Positions 396 through 40,495 of a stretch of 64,000 nt of DNA are shown piece after piece. The notes beneath the pieces are model-generated. The model had not been told where the DNA came from. It did no database searches and worked only from the letters and a program-made list of their open reading frames with translations. The translations under genes and the position numbers were made by a program. Numbering within the stretch: position 1 is the stretch's first letter; every line of letters starts with the position of its first letter. Source of the DNA: an uncultured virus (IMG/VR IMGVR_UViG_640753051_000003) (lineage: Duplodnaviria > Heunggongvirae > Uroviricota > Caudoviricetes); the IMG/VR virus record IMGVR_UViG_640753051_000003; one strand, 5' to 3'.

Positions 396-734
396 CTAAC
401 CAGCTTTCGTCAGCATCAGCACGCGTCTTGCCGCATCGGCAAAGGTGACACCGAGCGCGGCTCCAGCCATGCCAATGACGCCGAGAGCGCCCATCCCCAT
501 CAGTTTCCATTTGCGCACGTCGTCGGTCACCGGCTTCATGGAGGCGATATCGTCCTTGACGAGCATCATCGATCCCTCGAGCGTTCGCATTCGCTCGACC
601 ACTTCGTCCATCCGGCGCGTCATCGTCGGGCGCCCCGCATCGGATCTGTCTTCCGAGCGGCGCAGGTCCTCCCGCAGGTTCTTCACCTCGGCGACGAGAG
701 TGCCCAGTTGCTGGTGAACGCCTGCGTCAATCAT
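396..734 (-). CDS. lysis-cassette coiled-coil protein with C-terminal TM (DUF1515-like, possible holin accessory)
   Basis: ATG at 734 (MIDAGVHQ); coiled coil then hydrophobic GMGALGVIGMAGAALG; last gene of the lysis cassette. Confidence 0.55.
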   Translation of the reverse strand: MIDAGVHQQLGTLVAEVKNLREDLRRSEDRSDAGRPTMTRRMDEVVERMRTLEGSMMLVKDDIASMKPVTDDVRKWKLMGMGALGVIGMAGAALGVTFADAARRVLMLTKAG

Positions 735-978
735 GGCCGCGCTCCCCATGCTTGACACATTCCGAACGCGTCCAGACCGCGGCGGCGCAGAGGCCCACCA
801 CGGTGCGGTCGATCCTGCGCTGATCAGCCTGCGTGGCACCGCGCACGCCGGCAAGATCAGTCCCCACGATGCCGCGAAGGCCGCTCACATCGGCCGGTCC
901 CGAAATTCCACAGCCCGCCAGTAGTAGAACAGGTATCAAAATCAAGGCGCCTGGCGTCAGCGTTCCTCTCTGCTTCAT
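727..978 (-). CDS. putative o-spanin (Rz1-like lipoprotein)
   Basis: Lipobox LLLAG-C; overlaps the i-spanin-like frame; homologous to the broken ORF at 49872-50126. Confidence 0.6.
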   Translation of the reverse strand: MKQRGTLTPGALILIPVLLLAGCGISGPADVSGLRGIVGTDLAGVRGATQADQRRIDRTVVGLCAAAVWTRSECVKHGERGHD

Positions 979-1101
979 CGTTCTGCCTTTCAATTGAGGT
1001 GCGGATCGCTTGCGCGGCATCCGAACGAATTTCGTGCACCGCCCAGGAAATTGCGGCGAGTATCAGCGCGCCGCAGCCAGATTGCCCCACGGGATCATCA
1101 T
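857..1101 (-). pseudogene. putative i-spanin (Rz-like), apparently frameshifted near the N-terminus
   Basis: ATG coupled to the endolysin stop reads MMIPWGNLAAAR*; the TM plus coiled-coil body (GALILAAISW...) is one base out of frame at ~1073. Confidence 0.5.
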
Positions 1102-1907
1102 CGCGTGAGGCCCAGTGCATCGCGAACCGCCGGCATGGACCAGATGGCGTAAACGGCAAAGCCGATGATCGCTGCGAGAATGGCAAGTTGCACCCGCCAG
1201 TCCAGCGCCACCAGGTTCAGTTCCTTCAGCGCAGTGAGGATCGTACCGCCGGCGGTCAGCAACCAGGTCCAGAAGCGTCCGGAGCGGGAAACCGGCTTGC
1301 GCGTCCGCACCGGAGCAACAGGCGCCGCCTCGATCTCCCGGTTTGCCTCACCCAATTGCTTTGACGCCGCCAGAGCCGCGCCAAGAACCCCTTCCAGCCT
1401 CTCCGGCCGCACCAGCGCCCTGTTCTGCCCGTCACCGGCATAATAGGACTGTCCGCGCCTCACCCGCTGCCGGCTTCCCTTGCTATCGGTCAGCACCGGC
1501 AGCGACGCCCATTCCATGGCTAGGCGCCTGGCAAACTCCGCACGTCCTATTTCGTCCGCGAGGAAAGCGGCAAGACCGCGGCGGTTCAGAAGGTGAAGGG
1601 CCAGCCTGTCCTGAAGCGCGGCATCGAACCGATGATCGCCGCGCAGCCATGCCACCTCCTTCAGGAGCCCTGCCAAAGTGGCCCGCATGAACTGATAAGC
1701 GCCCGCAGCGCCCGAACCATGCGCTTTGGACCATCCCTTCTGCGCGGCAAGCACCTGCGCAACCGTCATTGCCGTCAGCGGCTTCGCCAGCCCTCCCTGA
1801 TTGTGTCCGTAGATCACGTCGTAAGACGCGCGGCCGCTGCTGCCGACTTCCGCCTCGCGGATAAACTCGAGCAGCATCGCCGCGCCTTGAGGCACGGTGT
1901 TTGTCAT
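1098..1907 (-). CDS. endolysin, lambda-R/GH104-like lysozyme with C-terminal TM segments
   Basis: YDVIYG, AAGAYQF and LAMEWASLP motifs; AAAGG RBS before ATG 1907; two hydrophobic C-terminal helices. Confidence 0.75.
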   Translation of the reverse strand: MTNTVPQGAAMLLEFIREAEVGSSGRASYDVIYGHNQGGLAKPLTAMTVAQVLAAQKGWSKAHGSGAAGAYQFMRATLAGLLKEVAWLRGDHRFDAALQDRLALHLLNRRGLAAFLADEIGRAEFARRLAMEWASLPVLTDSKGSRQRVRRGQSYYAGDGQNRALVRPERLEGVLGAALAASKQLGEANREIEAAPVAPVRTRKPVSRSGRFWTWLLTAGGTILTALKELNLVALDWRVQLAILAAIIGFAVYAIWSMPAVRDALGLTR

Positions 1908-1931
1908 TGGGTTACCTTTTTTGCTTAAAGA

Positions 1932-1956
1932 AAAACCCCGCTCATGGCGGGGTTTT
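1932..1956. terminator. hairpin with A/T tails, bidirectional terminator-like
   Basis: aaaaccccgc-tcatg-gcggggtttt. Confidence 0.6.
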
Positions 1957-2269
1957 GAGGCCGTTCGTTTATGAAGCCGTAGGCCAACAGTCACAGTGAC
2001 TTTTCGCCGAGGATCGGCGGGTGAGCGATGTAATCGATGCGCGGAGAGCCAGGCTCTGCGCCGAAGAGGTGCGAGGGACGGGGCATCGGGGGAATGCAAA
2101 CGTGTTGTCTTTTCGAACGAACTCGGGTGCCCACGGATCGGCTAAACGCCGCGCGAGCAACAAACGGTCGCCGTCGCAGCGGTCAACGGCAATTGCTGGC
2201 GACAAGAGGAAACGCGCGTCGTCGCCGACCGGGTGACGGGGGCGAACGGTTAGCTGGACCGTTAGCCTG

Positions 2270-38972: not shown

Positions 38973-38979
38973 CCCTGTC

Positions 38980-39669
38980 ATGAGCGAACGAGCTGAAAGA
39001 TTGCGTGAGGCGCGCGTCAAAGCGGGCTATCGATTTGCCTCCGACGCGGCGAATGCCTTGGGCATTGTCACCTCGACCTATCGCGCCCACGAAAACGGGC
39101 AGAACGATTTCGAGCTCGGCGAGGCCGAGGTATACGGCCGCAAATTCAATGTCGACCCGCTTTGGCTGTTGACCGGTACTGACCGCCGGACCTCCATCCC
39201 CCTGCCCCCTGCCACGACATTGCCTGAAGTCCACGCGCCGAACGCTCGAGTCGGCGCCAAGGTAATCGGTCAAGGGGAAAAGATCCCCGTCTTCGGCCAG
39301 GCCGTCGGCGGAGTTGATGGTGAATTCATAATGAACGGCAATGTGTTGTACGAAGTCATGGCACCGCCCATCCTCTCGGATGTCTCAGGCGCCTATGCGG
39401 TATCTGTGTCAGGCGATTCCATGTATCCGCGGTACGAAGACGGCGAAGTCTGCTTCGTCGATCCGAGCCGCCGCGTCCGCAAGGGCGACTACGTGATCGC
39501 CCAGATCCGGCTGGAGGAAAGCGGCGCTCTGCTCGCCTATGTCAAAAAATTCGTCCGCCACAACAGCTCCGAATTGGTACTCGAACAGTTCAACCCGCCC
39601 AAGGAGCTGCGCTTCGAGGCCCATACAGTTCATTCGGTCCATTATATCGCCCTCGCTGGCAACGCCTGA
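38980..39669 (+). CDS. CI/LexA-like repressor (XRE HTH plus S24 peptidase)
   Basis: RLREAR...TYRAHENG HTH; VSGDSMYP Ser and YVKK Lys. Confidence 0.9.
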   Translation: MSERAERLREARVKAGYRFASDAANALGIVTSTYRAHENGQNDFELGEAEVYGRKFNVDPLWLLTGTDRRTSIPLPPATTLPEVHAPNARVGAKVIGQGEKIPVFGQAVGGVDGEFIMNGNVLYEVMAPPILSDVSGAYAVSVSGDSMYPRYEDGEVCFVDPSRRVRKGDYVIAQIRLEESGALLAYVKKFVRHNSSELVLEQFNPPKELRFEAHTVHSVHYIALAGNA

Positions 39670-39784
39670 AGGCACGAGAGCTTCTCTTTCCATCCGCATT
39701 CCATTGCTTGTCCCACGAGAGCCAGGCAAAACCTTGGACTGGATGTACGTTCGCCTCCCCATCCCGGCAACATCCGCCAATTTC

Positions 39785-39814
39785 AACACAGTTCATGTTG
39801 ACATAGATCGTGTT
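39785..39814. promoter_or_regulatory. two further operator copies
   Basis: aACACagttcATGTt and gACATagatcGTGTt upstream of 39888. Confidence 0.6.
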
Positions 39815-39887
39815 GAGTGCGATGTTGCTGGAGTAATCAGGGCGAAGTCGCCCGACGCTTGCAGTTACTGAGGAGAAGAACCCCTAA

Positions 39888-40217
39888 ATGTCCCTCCCCC
39901 GAATCAAATCCGATCTTCATGGTCAGGTCGACGAACTCTTCGCGGCCGATCTTCTCCATTCAACGGATGCGCAAAACCAGACGGCGCTCAAAGGATTTCT
40001 CTCTTCCGCCTATTGCAGCCTGGCTTCGCTCGCCTGGCATCTCGGCGCCGATGGGCGTGTTTTCCAGCGCGAGGCGCGGCCTGCGACGGACCTCGTCGAC
40101 GACGTCTTCTTCGCCCTCAACCGCGAGCGCGAGTTTAGCGGCGGCGCCGATGCGCGGCAGACGCAACGACAGCTTGGCACTCATAATTCCCGCCAGCAGT
40201 TCGGAGGCGCCCTGTGA
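39888..40217 (+). CDS. phage early-region hypothetical protein
   Basis: GAGGAG RBS; downstream of operators. Confidence 0.6.
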   Translation: MSLPRIKSDLHGQVDELFAADLLHSTDAQNQTALKGFLSSAYCSLASLAWHLGADGRVFQREARPATDLVDDVFFALNREREFSGGADARQTQRQLGTHNSRQQFGGAL

Positions 40218-40495
40218 TGCGGGCTGAGACATACGCAATCGTCAATCTGGCGGCTCTGAACCTCATAGAAGCCGTCAGTGCCGCCTACTTCGTCACAGAG
40301 AAGCAGGCCACCACCCGTCACGAGTTTCGCGCCCGCGAAATGTTGAAGAAAATTGCTCTGGCTCTCGATTACGACCTTACCGAAGCGGCAATCCAAGCCG
40401 ACCGTCAGGAACTCTCAACCGGCATCGCGCCGCGGGCGACGGTCCCCGCCCTCAGGCTTGTATCTGCTGAGTTTGCTGAACGCAGCGGTGACTGA
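40214..40495 (+). CDS. phage early-region hypothetical protein
   Basis: GGAGG RBS, coupled to the previous ORF. Confidence 0.55.
   Translation: MMRAETYAIVNLAALNLIEAVSAAYFVTEKQATTRHEFRAREMLKKIALALDYDLTEAAIQADRQELSTGIAPRATVPALRLVSAEFAERSGD

Follow-up and report, generated by a model that had tools for sequence, protein, structure and literature searches.

The DNA at 396-40495 of the window (the whole 64,000-nucleotide stretch that was analysed, IMG/VR record IMGVR_UViG_640753051_000003) raises the question what a phage-like gene set that appears unable to move is doing in a bacterial chromosome. The first-pass annotation had read it as a near-complete, immobile and host-maintained particle cluster, with a recently decayed prophage as the alternative. 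Judged from its genes, the element is probably a domesticated, host-used defective-prophage particle maker, like PBSX or a GTA.

Gene identification was based on Pfam and PHROG scans of 59 ORFs. A PhiGT1/RHEph18-type podoviral set was found (terS-like gene, terL, portal, scaffold, capsid, two tubeA, tubeB, fibre and lysis genes), arranged as follows:

396..749, minus strand: DUF1515 protein with a C-terminal membrane helix (Pfam PF07439, 3e-62; phrog_5211)
727..1186, minus: two small overlapping ORFs, spanin-like candidates (phrog_19660, 2e-28; phrog_23603, 3e-23)
1098..1877, minus: endolysin (phrog_90 endolysin, 2e-33)
4800-5315, minus: downstream partner of the tail fibre (phrog_6034)
5316-6755, minus: tail fibre (phrog_21249/24210 tail fibre)
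6896..8002, minus: truncated internal virion (ejection) protein 1 (tblastn; phrog_24990 over its first third)
8002-8355, minus: small protein
8352-9950, minus: virion protein with S74 chaperone domain (Pfam, PHROG)
9954-10415, minus: phrog_21390 protein (PHROG)
10415..11947, minus: tubular tail B-like (nozzle) protein (phrog_5107, 2e-182)
12028-12630 and 13985-14587, minus: two paralogous tubeA/SU10-adaptor genes (PF24175)
14584..15122, minus: two small head-completion genes (phrog_3982, phrog_8441)
19851-20846, minus: major capsid protein (SU10_MCP, 2e-81)
20931-21899, minus: scaffold (phrog_3927)
22024..22263, minus: small conserved gene between portal and scaffold (phrog_12935)
25331..27382, minus: portal (SU10_portal, 1e-216)
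27382..28764, minus: large terminase, terL (Terminase_6N/6C)
30226..30645, minus: small-terminase candidate (48-51% identity to the RHEph18 gene overlapping the terL start)

The element belongs with the 'dual tubeA' podoviruses of the PhiGT1/RHEph18-like group. Its structural gene order is that of the free phage RHEph18 (MW980068.1) and of the mobile 'm' prophages of Sinorhizobium (e.g. G006:C4). Identity to RHEph18 is 87% for the capsid, 79% for terL, 64% for the portal and 70-75% for the head-completion genes, and genes 8002..10415 are 67-85% identical to 'm' prophages. The gene at 22024..22263 is common to RHEph18 and all intact copies. The tubeB-like protein is 80-93% identical among genus loci; of the tail fibre, the N-terminal part alone is conserved between copies. 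The DUF1515 gene, the final one of the lysis cassette, marks the left end of the element and was present in 17/17 genus loci examined. The spanin-like candidates contain a weak lipoprotein-signal match. The product of 30226..30645, shared with RHEph18/'m' relatives, is inferred to be the small terminase; according to the available part of Hardies et al. 2023 (PMC10386132) the homologous PhiGT1 terS gene was assigned by position only. The core genes proved intact in the window, terL being uninterrupted and the portal and capsid domains matched. Near-completeness holds for packaging, head, tail and lysis genes, but not for the two internal virion proteins, ~675 aa long in active relatives, which are missing or truncated.

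Functions for mobility and replication were not found. No integrase/recombinase domain was present in any of the 59 scanned ORFs. Six-frame HMM searches of the two sister-assembly contigs holding the element yielded no PF00589 or PF00239 match, and there was no PF00589 match within the fetched stretches of G000, G001, G013, G011 and G007 and no PF00239 match within those of G000, G001, G013, G011 and G029. The left side was checked in the sister assembly, where genes were called over the 40 kb that precede the window. A Pfam scan of the closest 20 kb showed its 16 ORFs to be host genes without exception (e.g. CitMHS, DUF924, MscS, TerC). Neither the element nor these 40 kb yielded an integrase, a recombinase or a replication gene. 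The integrase that the first-pass annotation had allowed for beyond the window edge was thus not found in the sister assembly, and its statement that integrase, recombination and primase/helicase genes are lacking was borne out. No att repeat was detected, the longest direct match between the element ends being 10 nt, a length reached by 89% of shuffles. To the right lie:

39888-40217 and 40214-40495, plus: two small ORFs, no family match
40515-41240: pentapeptide gene
41453-42460: Tim44-like gene
44374..44419, minus: tRNA-Lys(CTT), 3' 46 nt (blastn and ARAGORN)

As described before, these two small ORFs are all that separates the S24 repressor from the pentapeptide/Tim44 genes. They are conserved in 12/17 loci and are the sole remainder where relatives have a ~10 kb early operon and integrase (cf. 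RHEph18). Unlike the element, RHEph18/'m' relatives possess a tyrosine integrase, the ~10 kb early-left operon and a pair of internal virion proteins of ~675-744 aa, and those of the 'm' type a primase-helicase too; in the 'm' prophage of G006 the integrase is accompanied by a Cox/Arc-like gene and by DUF1376 with a Toprim-DnaB primase-helicase. The element has lost its integrase, att repeats, early-left operon, primase-helicase and both large internal virion proteins. The tRNA-Lys(CTT), intact at the corresponding place in the sister strain, is a possible ancestral attachment side that is now used by a second prophage. Table S2A, footnote d, in the available part of Hardies et al. 2023 (PMC10386132) also bears on this site.

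The position of the element is fixed. The CitMHS transporter gene adjoins it in 16/17 Sinorhizobium loci examined and the pentapeptide/Tim44 genes in 11/17 genus loci, and the same left flank was found in two genomes of the Ensifer group. Trees of host flanks, portal+terL, right arm and tail genes shared the same four clades, which a tree of the unlinked gyrB contained as well. Portal and terL, 85-92% identical within the lineage and 71-80% to 'm', follow the host tree and not the 'm' phages. Between the window and G021, dS was 0.56-0.63 for the flanks and 0.53, 0.50, 0.45 and 0.63 for terL, portal, capsid and tubeB. Chromosomal entry beside CitMHS therefore predates the split of Sinorhizobium and the Ensifer group and has been followed by vertical inheritance. 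The element is a very old virus remnant in nitrogen-fixing soil bacteria (rhizobia), unable by now to move, to replicate or to inject DNA, and it is ancient and not recently decayed; the earlier alternative of a recently decayed prophage is refuted, the insertion being older than the radiation of the genus.

What remains to the right of the structural genes is a control region:

37588..38193, minus: GafA-like protein, distantly homologous to the C-terminal (DUF6456) portion of that GTA activator
38333..38893, minus: DnaA-domain-IV-like helix-turn-helix protein, upstream half of the split GafA-like pair (PF08299, 1e-12; TIGR00362, 7e-12)
38905..38985: divergent promoter/operator region with repeated TGTCA/TGACA motifs, seen in the sequence
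38980..39669, plus: LexA/cI-type repressor with HTH and S24 self-cleaving peptidase domain (PF00717, 2e-12; phrog_4, 2e-28)

A GDSM motif was seen in the S24 repressor. The 37588..38193 product (g43 family) aligned to DUF6456/GafA-type profiles with 94.8% probability (hhalign profile-profile, E 4.9e-8, 132 columns); it is 48% identical to a RHEph18 gene, a GafA-C-like gene being common to the element and RHEph18/'m', and its dN/dS is 0.11. The DnaA-like gene lies directly upstream of the GafA-C-like gene, which is the order of the split gafA of Hyphomicrobiales, where a DnaA-like gene directly precedes the DUF6456 gene. In the operator region TGTCAACATGATT was invariant in 13/13 species despite dS of ~0.5-1. 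Both the conserved operator and the split activator pair of GafA-like type are kept in the element.

Whether such genes are maintained or are merely slow to disappear is the point at which the strongest competing explanation has to be weighed, namely that of a grounded prophage without present function, the ORFs of which survive by slow decay and occasional repair from active phages. Across element genes dN/dS was 0.06-0.27, similar to host genes (medians: capsid 0.065, terL 0.09, portal 0.12, tubeB 0.10, repressor 0.12, endolysin 0.23; host flanks 0.08-0.16). These low values were found at dS 0.5-1.0 and also in close pairs with dS 0.15-0.3. Purifying selection on packaging, head, tail, lysis and control genes has been as strong as on the host genes nearby. 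With it, the synteny, dN/dS and tree checks proposed earlier all agree on an immobile element that was long kept. Signs of decay, on the other hand, are frequent. Portal, capsid and terL were all full length and uninterrupted in 18/32 species genomes and damaged in 12 (portal alone full length without stops in 21/32); no trace of the element was seen in two, which are only 70% and 85% complete. A visibly damaged copy was therefore present in 12/30 near-complete species genomes, and large deletions were seen in G002, G026 and G007, which are among the five closest species to the window. In the sister assembly E221 of terL is a stop codon. Between the window and the sister strain 11 non-synonymous, 1 nonsense (this terL codon) and 5 synonymous changes were counted; on these small numbers the pattern appears nearly neutral. 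Together with the IS and cargo insertions these observations speak for a grounded prophage, and 'host-maintained' stands as far as purifying selection goes but is weakened by the damaged copies, the sister terL stop and the IS in the window.

Repair from active phages does occur. In the window and G021 the tail module resembles that of mobile 'm' prophages more closely than those of the remaining copies at the locus, which implies that recombination with active phages refreshes some genes. The 'm' prophage of G006 has a pair of internal virion proteins, 674 and 676 aa long, and the gene at 6896..8002 matches only residues 1-388 of the 674-aa protein. At the locus such proteins occur as fragments only (window, G021, G026); homologues of protein 2 were found in 3/32 species genomes, none of them at this locus. 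The internal virion protein genes that recombination brought in decayed again, and the neighbouring genes stayed intact. This selective decay, the operator DNA kept although it is non-coding, the agreement of portal and terL with the host tree and the low dN/dS make a grounded prophage unlikely. With the ejection proteins lost, any particles might just as well be inert. This loss, the split GafA-like pair and the recombinant tail module were not part of the first reading.

A selfish, locked-in prophage might instead package its own locus in situ and re-enter related cells by homologous recombination, to no benefit of the host. Median dS was lower in structural genes (0.46-0.78) than in flanks and arms (0.72-1.37), and between G001 and G013 it was 0.36-0.48 for tail genes and 0.74-1.21 for flanks, which hints at exchange of element DNA between species; host-like genes within the element would give homology. 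Codon-usage constraint may, however, explain the lower dS as well, and both a replication module to amplify the locus and ejection proteins to deliver DNA are missing. In one clade (clade C: G003, G006, G008, G005, G020) repressor and GafA-like gene are both intact but separated from the structural genes by 52-126 kb; the right arm of G003 is followed by host-type genes. Nine structural genes of this clade had a length-weighted dN/dS of 0.10-0.12 over ~3,230 codons. A capsid of the element's type could not carry both separated parts, and continued selection in this arrangement argues against a self-packaging phage, so that we regard self-transduction as quite improbable.

Unlike the compact, cargo-free structural operons of RHEph18/'m', the element contains insertions and host-like genes, with ~10 kb of foreign cargo within the late operon of the window copy:

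2270..4811: low-GC cargo, FkbM-type methyltransferase, hexapeptide acyltransferase and capsular-type glycosyltransferase (Pfam; GC 0.52-0.53)
12627-13988, minus: translationally coupled 453-aa HExxH protein between the two tubeA genes (HELAH motif in the translation)
15407..19585: cargo site 1, downstream of the capsid gene (Pfam PF10908/PF03734), including two membrane proteins on the plus strand
17101-17787 and 18872-19585: two paralogous membrane-anchored proteins, cargo site 1
17925-18584: Tlde1/YkuD-like L,D-transpeptidase-fold protein, cargo site 1 (PF10908/PF03734)
22470..25313: cargo site 2, between scaffold side and portal, DUF6973 protein and membrane or unknown proteins (PF22322; GC 0.53-0.55)
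28958-29299, plus: GFA (Pfam)
29327-29536, minus: DUF3309 (Pfam)
28958..30223: host-like cassette of GFA, DUF3309 and a four-helix membrane protein (plus) between terL and the terS candidate (sequence inspected)
32130..35660: IS21 + IS110 composite inside the element (Pfam)
32427-33386: IS21 istB
33227-34516: IS21 istA
34532-35527: IS110-family transposase
36979-37407, minus: BA14K-family small secreted protein (PF07886, 3e-13)

The interleaved host-type genes reported earlier (GFA, DUF3309, BA14K) were all found, but DUF3309 is not strictly a host gene, because it is also annotated just upstream of terL, beside the terminase as in the element, in RHEph18. The GFA/DUF3309/membrane-protein cassette is conserved in 17-18 of the compared rows (dN/dS 0.08-0.13). 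The IS composite, missed in the first reading, sits in non-coding DNA the flanks of which are contiguous in four relatives, and its sequence recurs at many contig ends of the sister assembly. The cargo at 2270..4811 was absent from the other 17 loci, save one partial match. Cargo site 2 differs in content between copies, and portal 3' fragments lie on its flanks in relatives.

This cargo invites the explanation that the element makes killer particles, in which cargo that acts on the cell wall took the place of the lost canonical internal virion proteins and is set free by the short tail in the periplasm of competing cells. In the late operon, the Tlde1/YkuD-like protein shows HGG...SAGC, which we take to be its catalytic motif, and the paralogous membrane-anchored proteins beside it look like immunity genes; the HExxH protein coupled between the tubeA genes and the DUF6973 protein fit as well. 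Yet the content of cargo site 1 is patchy (the Tlde1-like gene is confined to the window, G003, G008 and G061 among the loci examined), the cargo regions are low in GC and resemble ordinary moron hot spots, and no link between cargo and virion was found. The HExxH insert occurs in the window and G021 only, of the loci examined, and had no match in 50,697 phage records. Strong selection on terL, terS candidate and portal points to a need for DNA packaging, and a killer particle is in our view very unlikely. A still-autonomous temperate phage with an unrecognised integration and replication system is hardly conceivable: the ~37 kb of the element without IS is near phage size and repressor, operator, activators and lysis genes are present, but among 32 species it was never at another locus (second copies elsewhere are 'm'-type with integrase), att repeats are missing, its trees agree with host trees and in clade C it lies in two distant parts.

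As a domesticated particle maker the element has precedents. PBSX-type defective prophages of Bacillus subtilis occupy a fixed locus without integrase or replication module; PBSX is repressor-controlled and induced by DNA damage, its late operon includes terminase and lysis genes, and its particles, released by lysis, have a contractile myovirus-type tail and kill by adsorption. PBSX is confined to a narrow species group. It is presumably unrelated to the element in sequence, the likeness lying in fixed locus, missing integrase and replication genes, repressor and lysis. RcGTA of Rhodobacter capsulatus and alphaproteobacterial RcGTA-like clusters share with the element vertically inherited, phage-derived particle genes under purifying selection, the lack of integrase and replication genes and a GafA-type activator; regulators unlinked from structural genes, as in clade C, are a further likeness. 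However, RcGTA, siphovirus-like and of HK97 type, has a small head and is under CtrA and quorum-sensing control, whereas the element is podoviral, has an SU10-type capsid and kept its phage repressor. The sister genome yielded neither a GTA_TIM (PF13547) nor a DUF6456 (PF20057) gene, although DUF6456 occurs in 54/61 genomes of the order. BaGTA of Bartonella is a domesticated phage remnant that transfers host DNA and is coupled to a run-off replication origin; we assume that its host belongs to the same GTDB family as that of the element and that its structural genes are unrelated.

By such a scheme DNA damage would make the S24 repressor cleave itself at the conserved operator. The leftward promoter would then express the DnaA-like HTH protein and the DUF6456-like protein, which as a split GafA-type activator may switch on the late genes in trans. 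Terminase would fill SU10-type capsids by headful packaging of unexcised, unreplicated chromosomal DNA, short tails would be added, and endolysin, DUF1515 and spanin-like proteins would lyse the producer cell. The capsid being so similar to that of the 44-kb phage RHEph18, there is no hint of the small head that GTAs typically have. Without ejection proteins, delivered DNA would reach at most the periplasm of the recipient and would require the recipient's own uptake system, on which delivery of RcGTA DNA also relies. Alternatively, the particle may act without DNA delivery.

The lineage had been flagged in 2023, of which the first reading was unaware. In its available part, Hardies et al. 2023 (Viruses 15:1475, PMC10386132) describes an integrase-less Sinorhizobium 'f' lineage of PhiGT1-like prophage candidates, three of them without integrase or att site found, with dN/dS similar to active relatives, and treats it as a puzzling phage lineage, full understanding of which is 'still elusive'. 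These candidates, in S. fredii and S. americanum chromosomes at ~1.9-2.3 Mb, share the dual tubeA structure module with the element and are of the same lineage. Beyond that part of the paper, the present analysis adds that the element's position is fixed over 32 species and in the Ensifer group, in agreement with the gyrB tree, that the primase-helicase has gone along with both internal virion proteins, that the GafA-like activator is split in two and the operator conserved, and that in one clade the regulators stand 52-126 kb away from the structural genes. The count of decayed copies is new as well. The particle-building genes have been kept in working order, and the bacteria therefore probably use the element.

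The gene content of the element (396-40495) was determined by Pfam and PHROG scans of 59 ORFs in the window, whose GC content is about 60%.

Features of the element.
38980-39669, divergent from the next two genes: S24 repressor
38333-38893, minus strand: DnaA-domain-IV-like HTH gene (PF08299, 1e-12)
37588-38193, minus strand: 201-aa GafA-C-like gene
about 32.13-35.66 kb (32130-35660): IS21 + IS110 composite
30226-30645, minus strand: small-terminase candidate
27382-28764, minus strand: terL, T4-type large terminase (PF03237/PF17289)
25331-27382, minus strand: SU10-type portal (PF23899, 1e-216)
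after portal, before scaffold, minus strand: small conserved gene
between scaffold and portal: cargo, DUF6973 protein and others
20931-21899, minus strand: scaffold
19851-20846, minus strand: capsid, SU10-type MCP (PF17236, 2e-81)
downstream of capsid, minus strand: two head-completion genes
downstream of capsid gene: cargo, Tlde1/YkuD-like protein and two paralogous membrane-anchored proteins
13985-14587 and 12028-12630, minus strand: two SU10-adaptor (tubeA) paralogues (PF24175)
between tubeA genes: cargo, translationally coupled HExxH protein (453 aa)
10415-11947, minus strand: tubeB-like gene (phrog_5107)
after tubeB-like gene, minus strand: S74-domain virion protein, then tail fibre
2.3-4.8 kb: cargo, sugar-modifying enzymes
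end of the series, minus strand: endolysin, spanin-like ORFs and DUF1515 gene (396-749)

The first-pass annotation had described a near-complete packaging, head, tail and lysis set. These modules are all present, but both large internal virion proteins are missing or fragmentary. As it had also reported, only two small ORFs lie between the repressor and the pentapeptide and Tim44-like genes, and host-type genes (GFA, DUF3309, BA14K, together with a four-helix membrane protein) are interleaved in the element; a DUF3309 gene also lies near terL in the free Rhizobium phage RHEph18. The flanks of the IS21 + IS110 composite are contiguous in four relatives, which implies that it struck non-coding DNA. 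Its ends (32130-35660) match many contig ends in the sister-strain draft assembly (G000), and one public run contained a form skipping 32368-34593, i.e. without the IS21 part. In one public run a contig skips 165 nt in the scaffold gene (window 21591-21757), which is probably a strain variant.

The presence of two divergent tubeA paralogues followed by tubeB defines the dual tubeA podovirus group of Hardies et al. (2023; PMC10386132). The element shows this arrangement, the paralogues being split here by the 453-aa insert, and it has the SU10-type portal and MCP and the T4-type terminase of this PhiGT1/RHEph18-like group. By portal, the closest cultured phages are the Rhizobium phages RHEph18, RHph_Y25 and RHph_N2 (64% identity), followed by Sulfitobacter pCB2047-A/C (57%), EBPR podovirus 2 (55%) and PhiGT1 (53%). 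Identity to RHEph18 reaches 87% for the capsid and 79% for terL.

Several functions of these relatives are absent from the element. In the annotation of RHEph18 an integrase gene and a leftward early operon (about 10 kb) are present, and the S74 protein is followed by two others, of 744 and 675 aa. The mobile prophage relatives ('m' lineage, e.g. G006:C4) have a compact structural operon with internal virion proteins of 674 and 676 aa, DUF1376 and Toprim/DnaB primase-helicase genes, a Cox/Arc-like gene and a terminal tyrosine integrase. In contrast to both, every copy examined at the present locus lacks the integrase, the early-left operon, the primase-helicase and both large internal virion proteins. 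In the window, internal virion protein 1 is cut to residues 1-388 of 674, and no match to protein 2 was found anywhere in G000. Homologues of protein 2 occur in 3 of the 32 species genomes (G006:C4, G018:C27, G027:C13), none of them at this locus, where the remnants consist of residues 2-418 of protein 1 in G021 and pieces of both proteins in G026.

No recombinase domain was detected in the 59 window ORFs (Pfam, PHROG), and the right arm gave no match to a replication family in Pfam, PHROG or NCBIfam, the last adding no match beyond the DnaA-like one. The absence of integrase, recombination and primase/helicase genes, already noticed at first pass, was thus confirmed. An integrase or att site could have been situated to the left of the window. 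This flank was studied in G000, which is 99.94% identical to the window and carries window positions 1-32285 on contig C16 and 35451-44419 on C12. Genes were called across 40 kb, and Pfam assigned all 16 ORFs of the nearest 20 kb to the host; closest is a CitMHS transporter gene, and next come two small lipoprotein genes that are paralogous. Six-frame HMM searches of G000 gave 16 tyrosine-recombinase and 3 serine-recombinase matches genome-wide, none of them on C16 or C12. Likewise, no tyrosine recombinase (PF00589) was found in the fetched 60-kb stretches of G001, G013, G011 and G007, and no serine recombinase (PF00239) in those of G001, G013, G011 and G029. The longest direct repeat between the ends of the element is 10 nt, a length reached in 89% of shuffles, and a repeat of the tRNA-Lys 3' end was not found at the left end. 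The element therefore lacks what marks an autonomous temperate prophage, i.e. integrase and att sites, a replication module and a full set of ejection proteins.

The search took in all 32 species genomes of the genus, from which 17 loci were retrieved (12 with a full portal gene, 5 without). The locus proved to be the same throughout: CitMHS adjoins the element in 16 of the 17 loci and pentapeptide/Tim44 in 11, and in two Ensifer-group genomes (S. chiapasense S24 and E. sesbaniae) the element lies beside the CitMHS orthologue with the same layout, Tim44 being elsewhere. At the five portal-less loci the right arm, the lysis genes and all or part of terL persist, indicating internal deletions and not empty sites. 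A full-length, uninterrupted portal gene (84-90% identity) is present in 21 of the 32 genomes, a full-length capsid gene at this locus in 22, and a full-length, uninterrupted terL in 22, G000 giving a full-length match with one stop. All three genes are intact in 18 genomes. Damage was seen in 12 (G000, by the terL stop, G002, G004, G005, G007, G012, G014, G020, G022, G023, G025 and G026), and the two genomes without any trace are only 70% and 85% complete.

Some features of the locus vary. The small lipoprotein genes (window 1-285; G000:C16:120606-120890) lie between CitMHS and the lysis genes at every locus; in G013 and G003 as many as four stand in tandem. The Ensifer-group genomes G061 and G063 have extra genes between portal and terL (a 355-376-aa ORF), G003 has 2.2 kb in this position, and G063 apparently lacks the capsid and scaffold genes. 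In 10 of the 17 loci the last small ORF is followed on its right, after 0.14-5 kb, by a tRNA-Lys(CTT) gene, which is intact in G000. The window keeps only its 3' 46 nt (44374-44419). Window 44420-64000 is a second, siphovirus-like prophage that is inserted in this tRNA gene, runs off the window and is absent from G000, where relatives with 83-94% identity are present on other contigs. It encodes a tape measure (60941-63073), a tail-tip protein (55692-58349), a DUF6950/NlpC-like protein, a PG-binding lysis protein, an NPP1-family (necrosis-inducing-protein-like) protein (46312-47112) and thioredoxin/redoxin proteins.

Trees of the host flanks, of portal plus terL, of the right arm and of the tail genes gave the same four clades with 98-100% SH-aLRT. 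The unlinked gyrB tree gave the same groupings, including the inner orders (window,(G007,G002)) and (G008,(G003,G006)); support for the deeper branches is weak, and they disagree on G001. The dN/dS values (Nei-Gojobori, medians) were 0.065 for capsid, 0.09 for terL, 0.10 for tubeB, 0.12 for portal, 0.12 for the repressor, 0.22 for scaffold and 0.23 for endolysin, as compared with 0.08-0.16 for the host flanks. The comparison with the host tree and the dN/dS of terL, portal and capsid, proposed at first pass as a check, thus point to vertical inheritance with the host and to purifying selection. In close pairs (dS 0.15-0.3) dN/dS was 0.04-0.2. Between the window and G021, dS was 0.56-0.63 in the flanks and 0.45-0.79 in the genes of the element. 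Median dS of the structural genes (0.46-0.78) was lower than that of flanks and arms (0.72-1.37), which may result from between-species exchange or codon constraint. A DUF924 'orthologue' in G006 turned out to be a paralogue and was left out of the analysis.

Between strains, 22 differences separate the window from G000 over 41 kb: 11 are non-synonymous, 5 synonymous and 1 nonsense, and 5 fall outside called genes. Based on these small numbers the pattern looks near neutral, as very recent differences usually do. The nonsense change (window 28104, C>A in G000) converts terL codon 221 (Glu, E221) to a stop; the window does not have it, and one public run spanning 28104 is the same as the window there.

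Descent along one locus was accompanied by exchange with mobile relatives. Between about 6.9 and 22.3 kb, the genes of the window and G021 resemble the 'm' prophages more than they do the other integrase-less, PhiGT1-like copies at this locus ('f' lineage): identity is 73% versus 44-51% for scaffold, 86-88% versus 58-62% for the head-completion gene g18 and 71-78% versus 56-60% for tubeA. Portal and terL show the opposite pattern. Thus, recombination with an 'm'-like phage replaced the tail and head module in the clade of the window and G021. The genes for internal virion proteins imported with this module are now fragments, which implies that the ejection proteins were lost twice while their neighbours stayed intact.

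The late operon has also been entered at several sites by low-GC DNA, the cargo listed among the features. The HExxH protein has no match in phage records and many in alphaproteobacterial genomes. The cargo varies by species, and 3' fragments of capsid or portal genes border it in relatives. This suggests entry of cassettes through recombination at the ends of the capsid and portal genes. Duplicated portal/capsid 3' fragments were seen in the rebuilt loci of G013 (33135-34220) and G021r (34462-34728) and in G061 (23137-23466 and 27376-27804).

A clade in which the parts have become unlinked was particularly informative. Five genomes (G003, G006, G008, G005 and G020) have their structural genes 52-126 kb away from an intact repressor gene (80-84% identical) and an intact GafA-C-like gene (74-77%); in G003, host-type genes including cyclases and transporters follow the right arm. 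Within this clade the length-weighted dN/dS of nine structural genes, about 3,230 codons together, was 0.10-0.12; for the capsid gene it was 0.02-0.03. The capsid protein resembles that of a 44-kb phage. As the genes of the clade span more than 52 kb in two places, they could not share one particle. That selection persisted once the element outgrew one capsid is the strongest argument for use at the level of the host and against a self-transmitting phage.

With respect to control, the 80 nt upstream of the repressor contain repeated TGTCA/TGACA motifs that are conserved in 13 of 13 species, TGTCAACATGATT being invariant. A LexA box (pattern GAAC-N7-GAAC) was rejected, as one match (29507) was found and 2.4 were expected by chance. 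GafA, annotated DUF6456, is the direct activator of RcGTA, and Hyphomicrobiales carry gafA as two separate genes, a DnaA-like one and, downstream of it, one of 22-32 kDa (Fogg 2019; Sherlock & Fogg 2022). The element has a DnaA-domain-IV-like HTH gene directly before a DUF6456-type gene, exactly in the Hyphomicrobiales order. The 201-aa gene has 483 relatives at E <= 0.001, and a profile of 69 sequences of its family matched DUF6456 from 14 genomes of the order over 132 columns (hhalign, 94.8% probability, E 4.9e-8). Pfam gave no match for the window protein itself; PF20057 was weakly matched by 3 of the 69 family members. Its structure model had a pLDDT of 54 from 15 close sequences and 91.7 from 69; Foldseek against PDB gave no match at E <= 0.001, and two PDB sequence searches gave nothing meaningful. 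Two longer relatives are HNH fusions and not DnaA-like, so that fusions lend the split-gene reading no support. We infer that the split pair would activate the late genes. RHEph18 has a homologue of the downstream gene, which indicates a phage-type late activator that by itself is no proof of a GTA.

About 110-140 nt upstream of terL, the terL-GFA intergenic region (about 28850-28900) holds a non-coding motif that reads CATTATTGA...CAGTCCAGC in terL orientation. Of the 17 aligned rows, 8 show it recognisably; G001 has a partial match, and the G003/G006/G008/G020 and G017/G029 groups have no recognisable one. A late promoter, an activator site and a pac site are possible roles for it. Public runs for capsid-to-terL numbered 24; the 'RNA' runs with a high share have contig totals of about genome size and may hold DNA. 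Of four runs compared with the window, two older RNA runs gave no match, one cDNA run covers only 29.7-37.5 kb and a little after 40.3 kb, and one run covers nearly everything. Being contigs, these data give no ranking of expression, and gaps in their coverage carry no weight.

Tailocins consist of tail genes only, whereas the element keeps conserved capsid, scaffold, portal and terminase genes. Like PBSX, the element sits at a fixed locus, has its terminase and lysis genes in a late operon under repressor control and is without integrase or replication genes; PBSX has a contractile tail and kills sensitive strains, whereas the element is podoviral and has no sheath or tail-tube genes. With GTAs it shares vertically inherited, phage-derived particle genes under purifying selection; GTAs also pack mostly random host DNA, in amounts too small for their own genes, and pass it to recipient cells. 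RcGTA-like clusters have an HK97-type head-tail and GTA_TIM (g15-like), in contrast to the SU10-type capsid here. Neither PF13547 (GTA_TIM) nor PF20057 (DUF6456) was found in G000, which is 99.99% complete; PF20057 is present in 54 of 61 genomes of the order. The genus may thus be without an RcGTA-type system, judging from G000. The missing ejection proteins argue against phage-like injection. Long-tailed phages are, to our knowledge, the source of every characterised GTA and PBSX-type element.

Taken as genomic evidence, these data indicate that the element is an old immobilised podoviral prophage, kept in working order by cells in most lineages. The immobile, host-maintained particle factory of the first-pass annotation holds as to immobility at one locus and purifying selection; as to maintenance it has to be weakened by the frequent decay (12 of 30 near-complete genomes, including 3 of the 5 species nearest the window), which implies that the benefit is conditional. 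Most likely, DNA damage would remove the repressor, the split GafA-like pair would then switch on the late genes, and DNA-filled short-tailed particles would be made with lysis of the producer cell. For the predicted particles we put a GTA-like or transducing role ahead of killing or toxin delivery, given that few genes of the element are as constrained as those for packaging.

A more far-reaching reading is possible but doubtful in our opinion: the element, in place since before the Sinorhizobium-Ensifer radiation, would be the first domesticated particle system to come from a podovirus, and would have given up phage-style injection. It would act either as a GTA whose DNA enters via the uptake machinery of recipients, or as a capsid and tail delivering cell-wall-acting cargo (Tlde1/YkuD-like, HExxH, DUF6973) into the periplasm of competing rhizobia; its genome, as searched in the sister assembly, gave neither marker of the RcGTA-type system.

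In the literature on Sinorhizobium GTAs, prophages and podoviruses, mitomycin, bacteriocins and defective phages, and domesticated podovirus GTAs, the element was found only in Hardies et al. The lineage has been in print since 2023 in their account of this phage group (Hardies et al., Viruses 15:1475, PMC10386132), which left the 'f lineage' as a puzzle. This is resolved here; the interpretation and most of the evidence are new. The main group of legume symbionts has retained the element for tens of millions of years. A short-tailed tamed element, if true, would widen the known routes by which bacterial viruses are domesticated. It would give a testable system for how inoculant and native strains of rhizobia exchange genes or compete, for the abilities of a tailed capsid without ejection proteins and for the phage origin of GafA-type activators.
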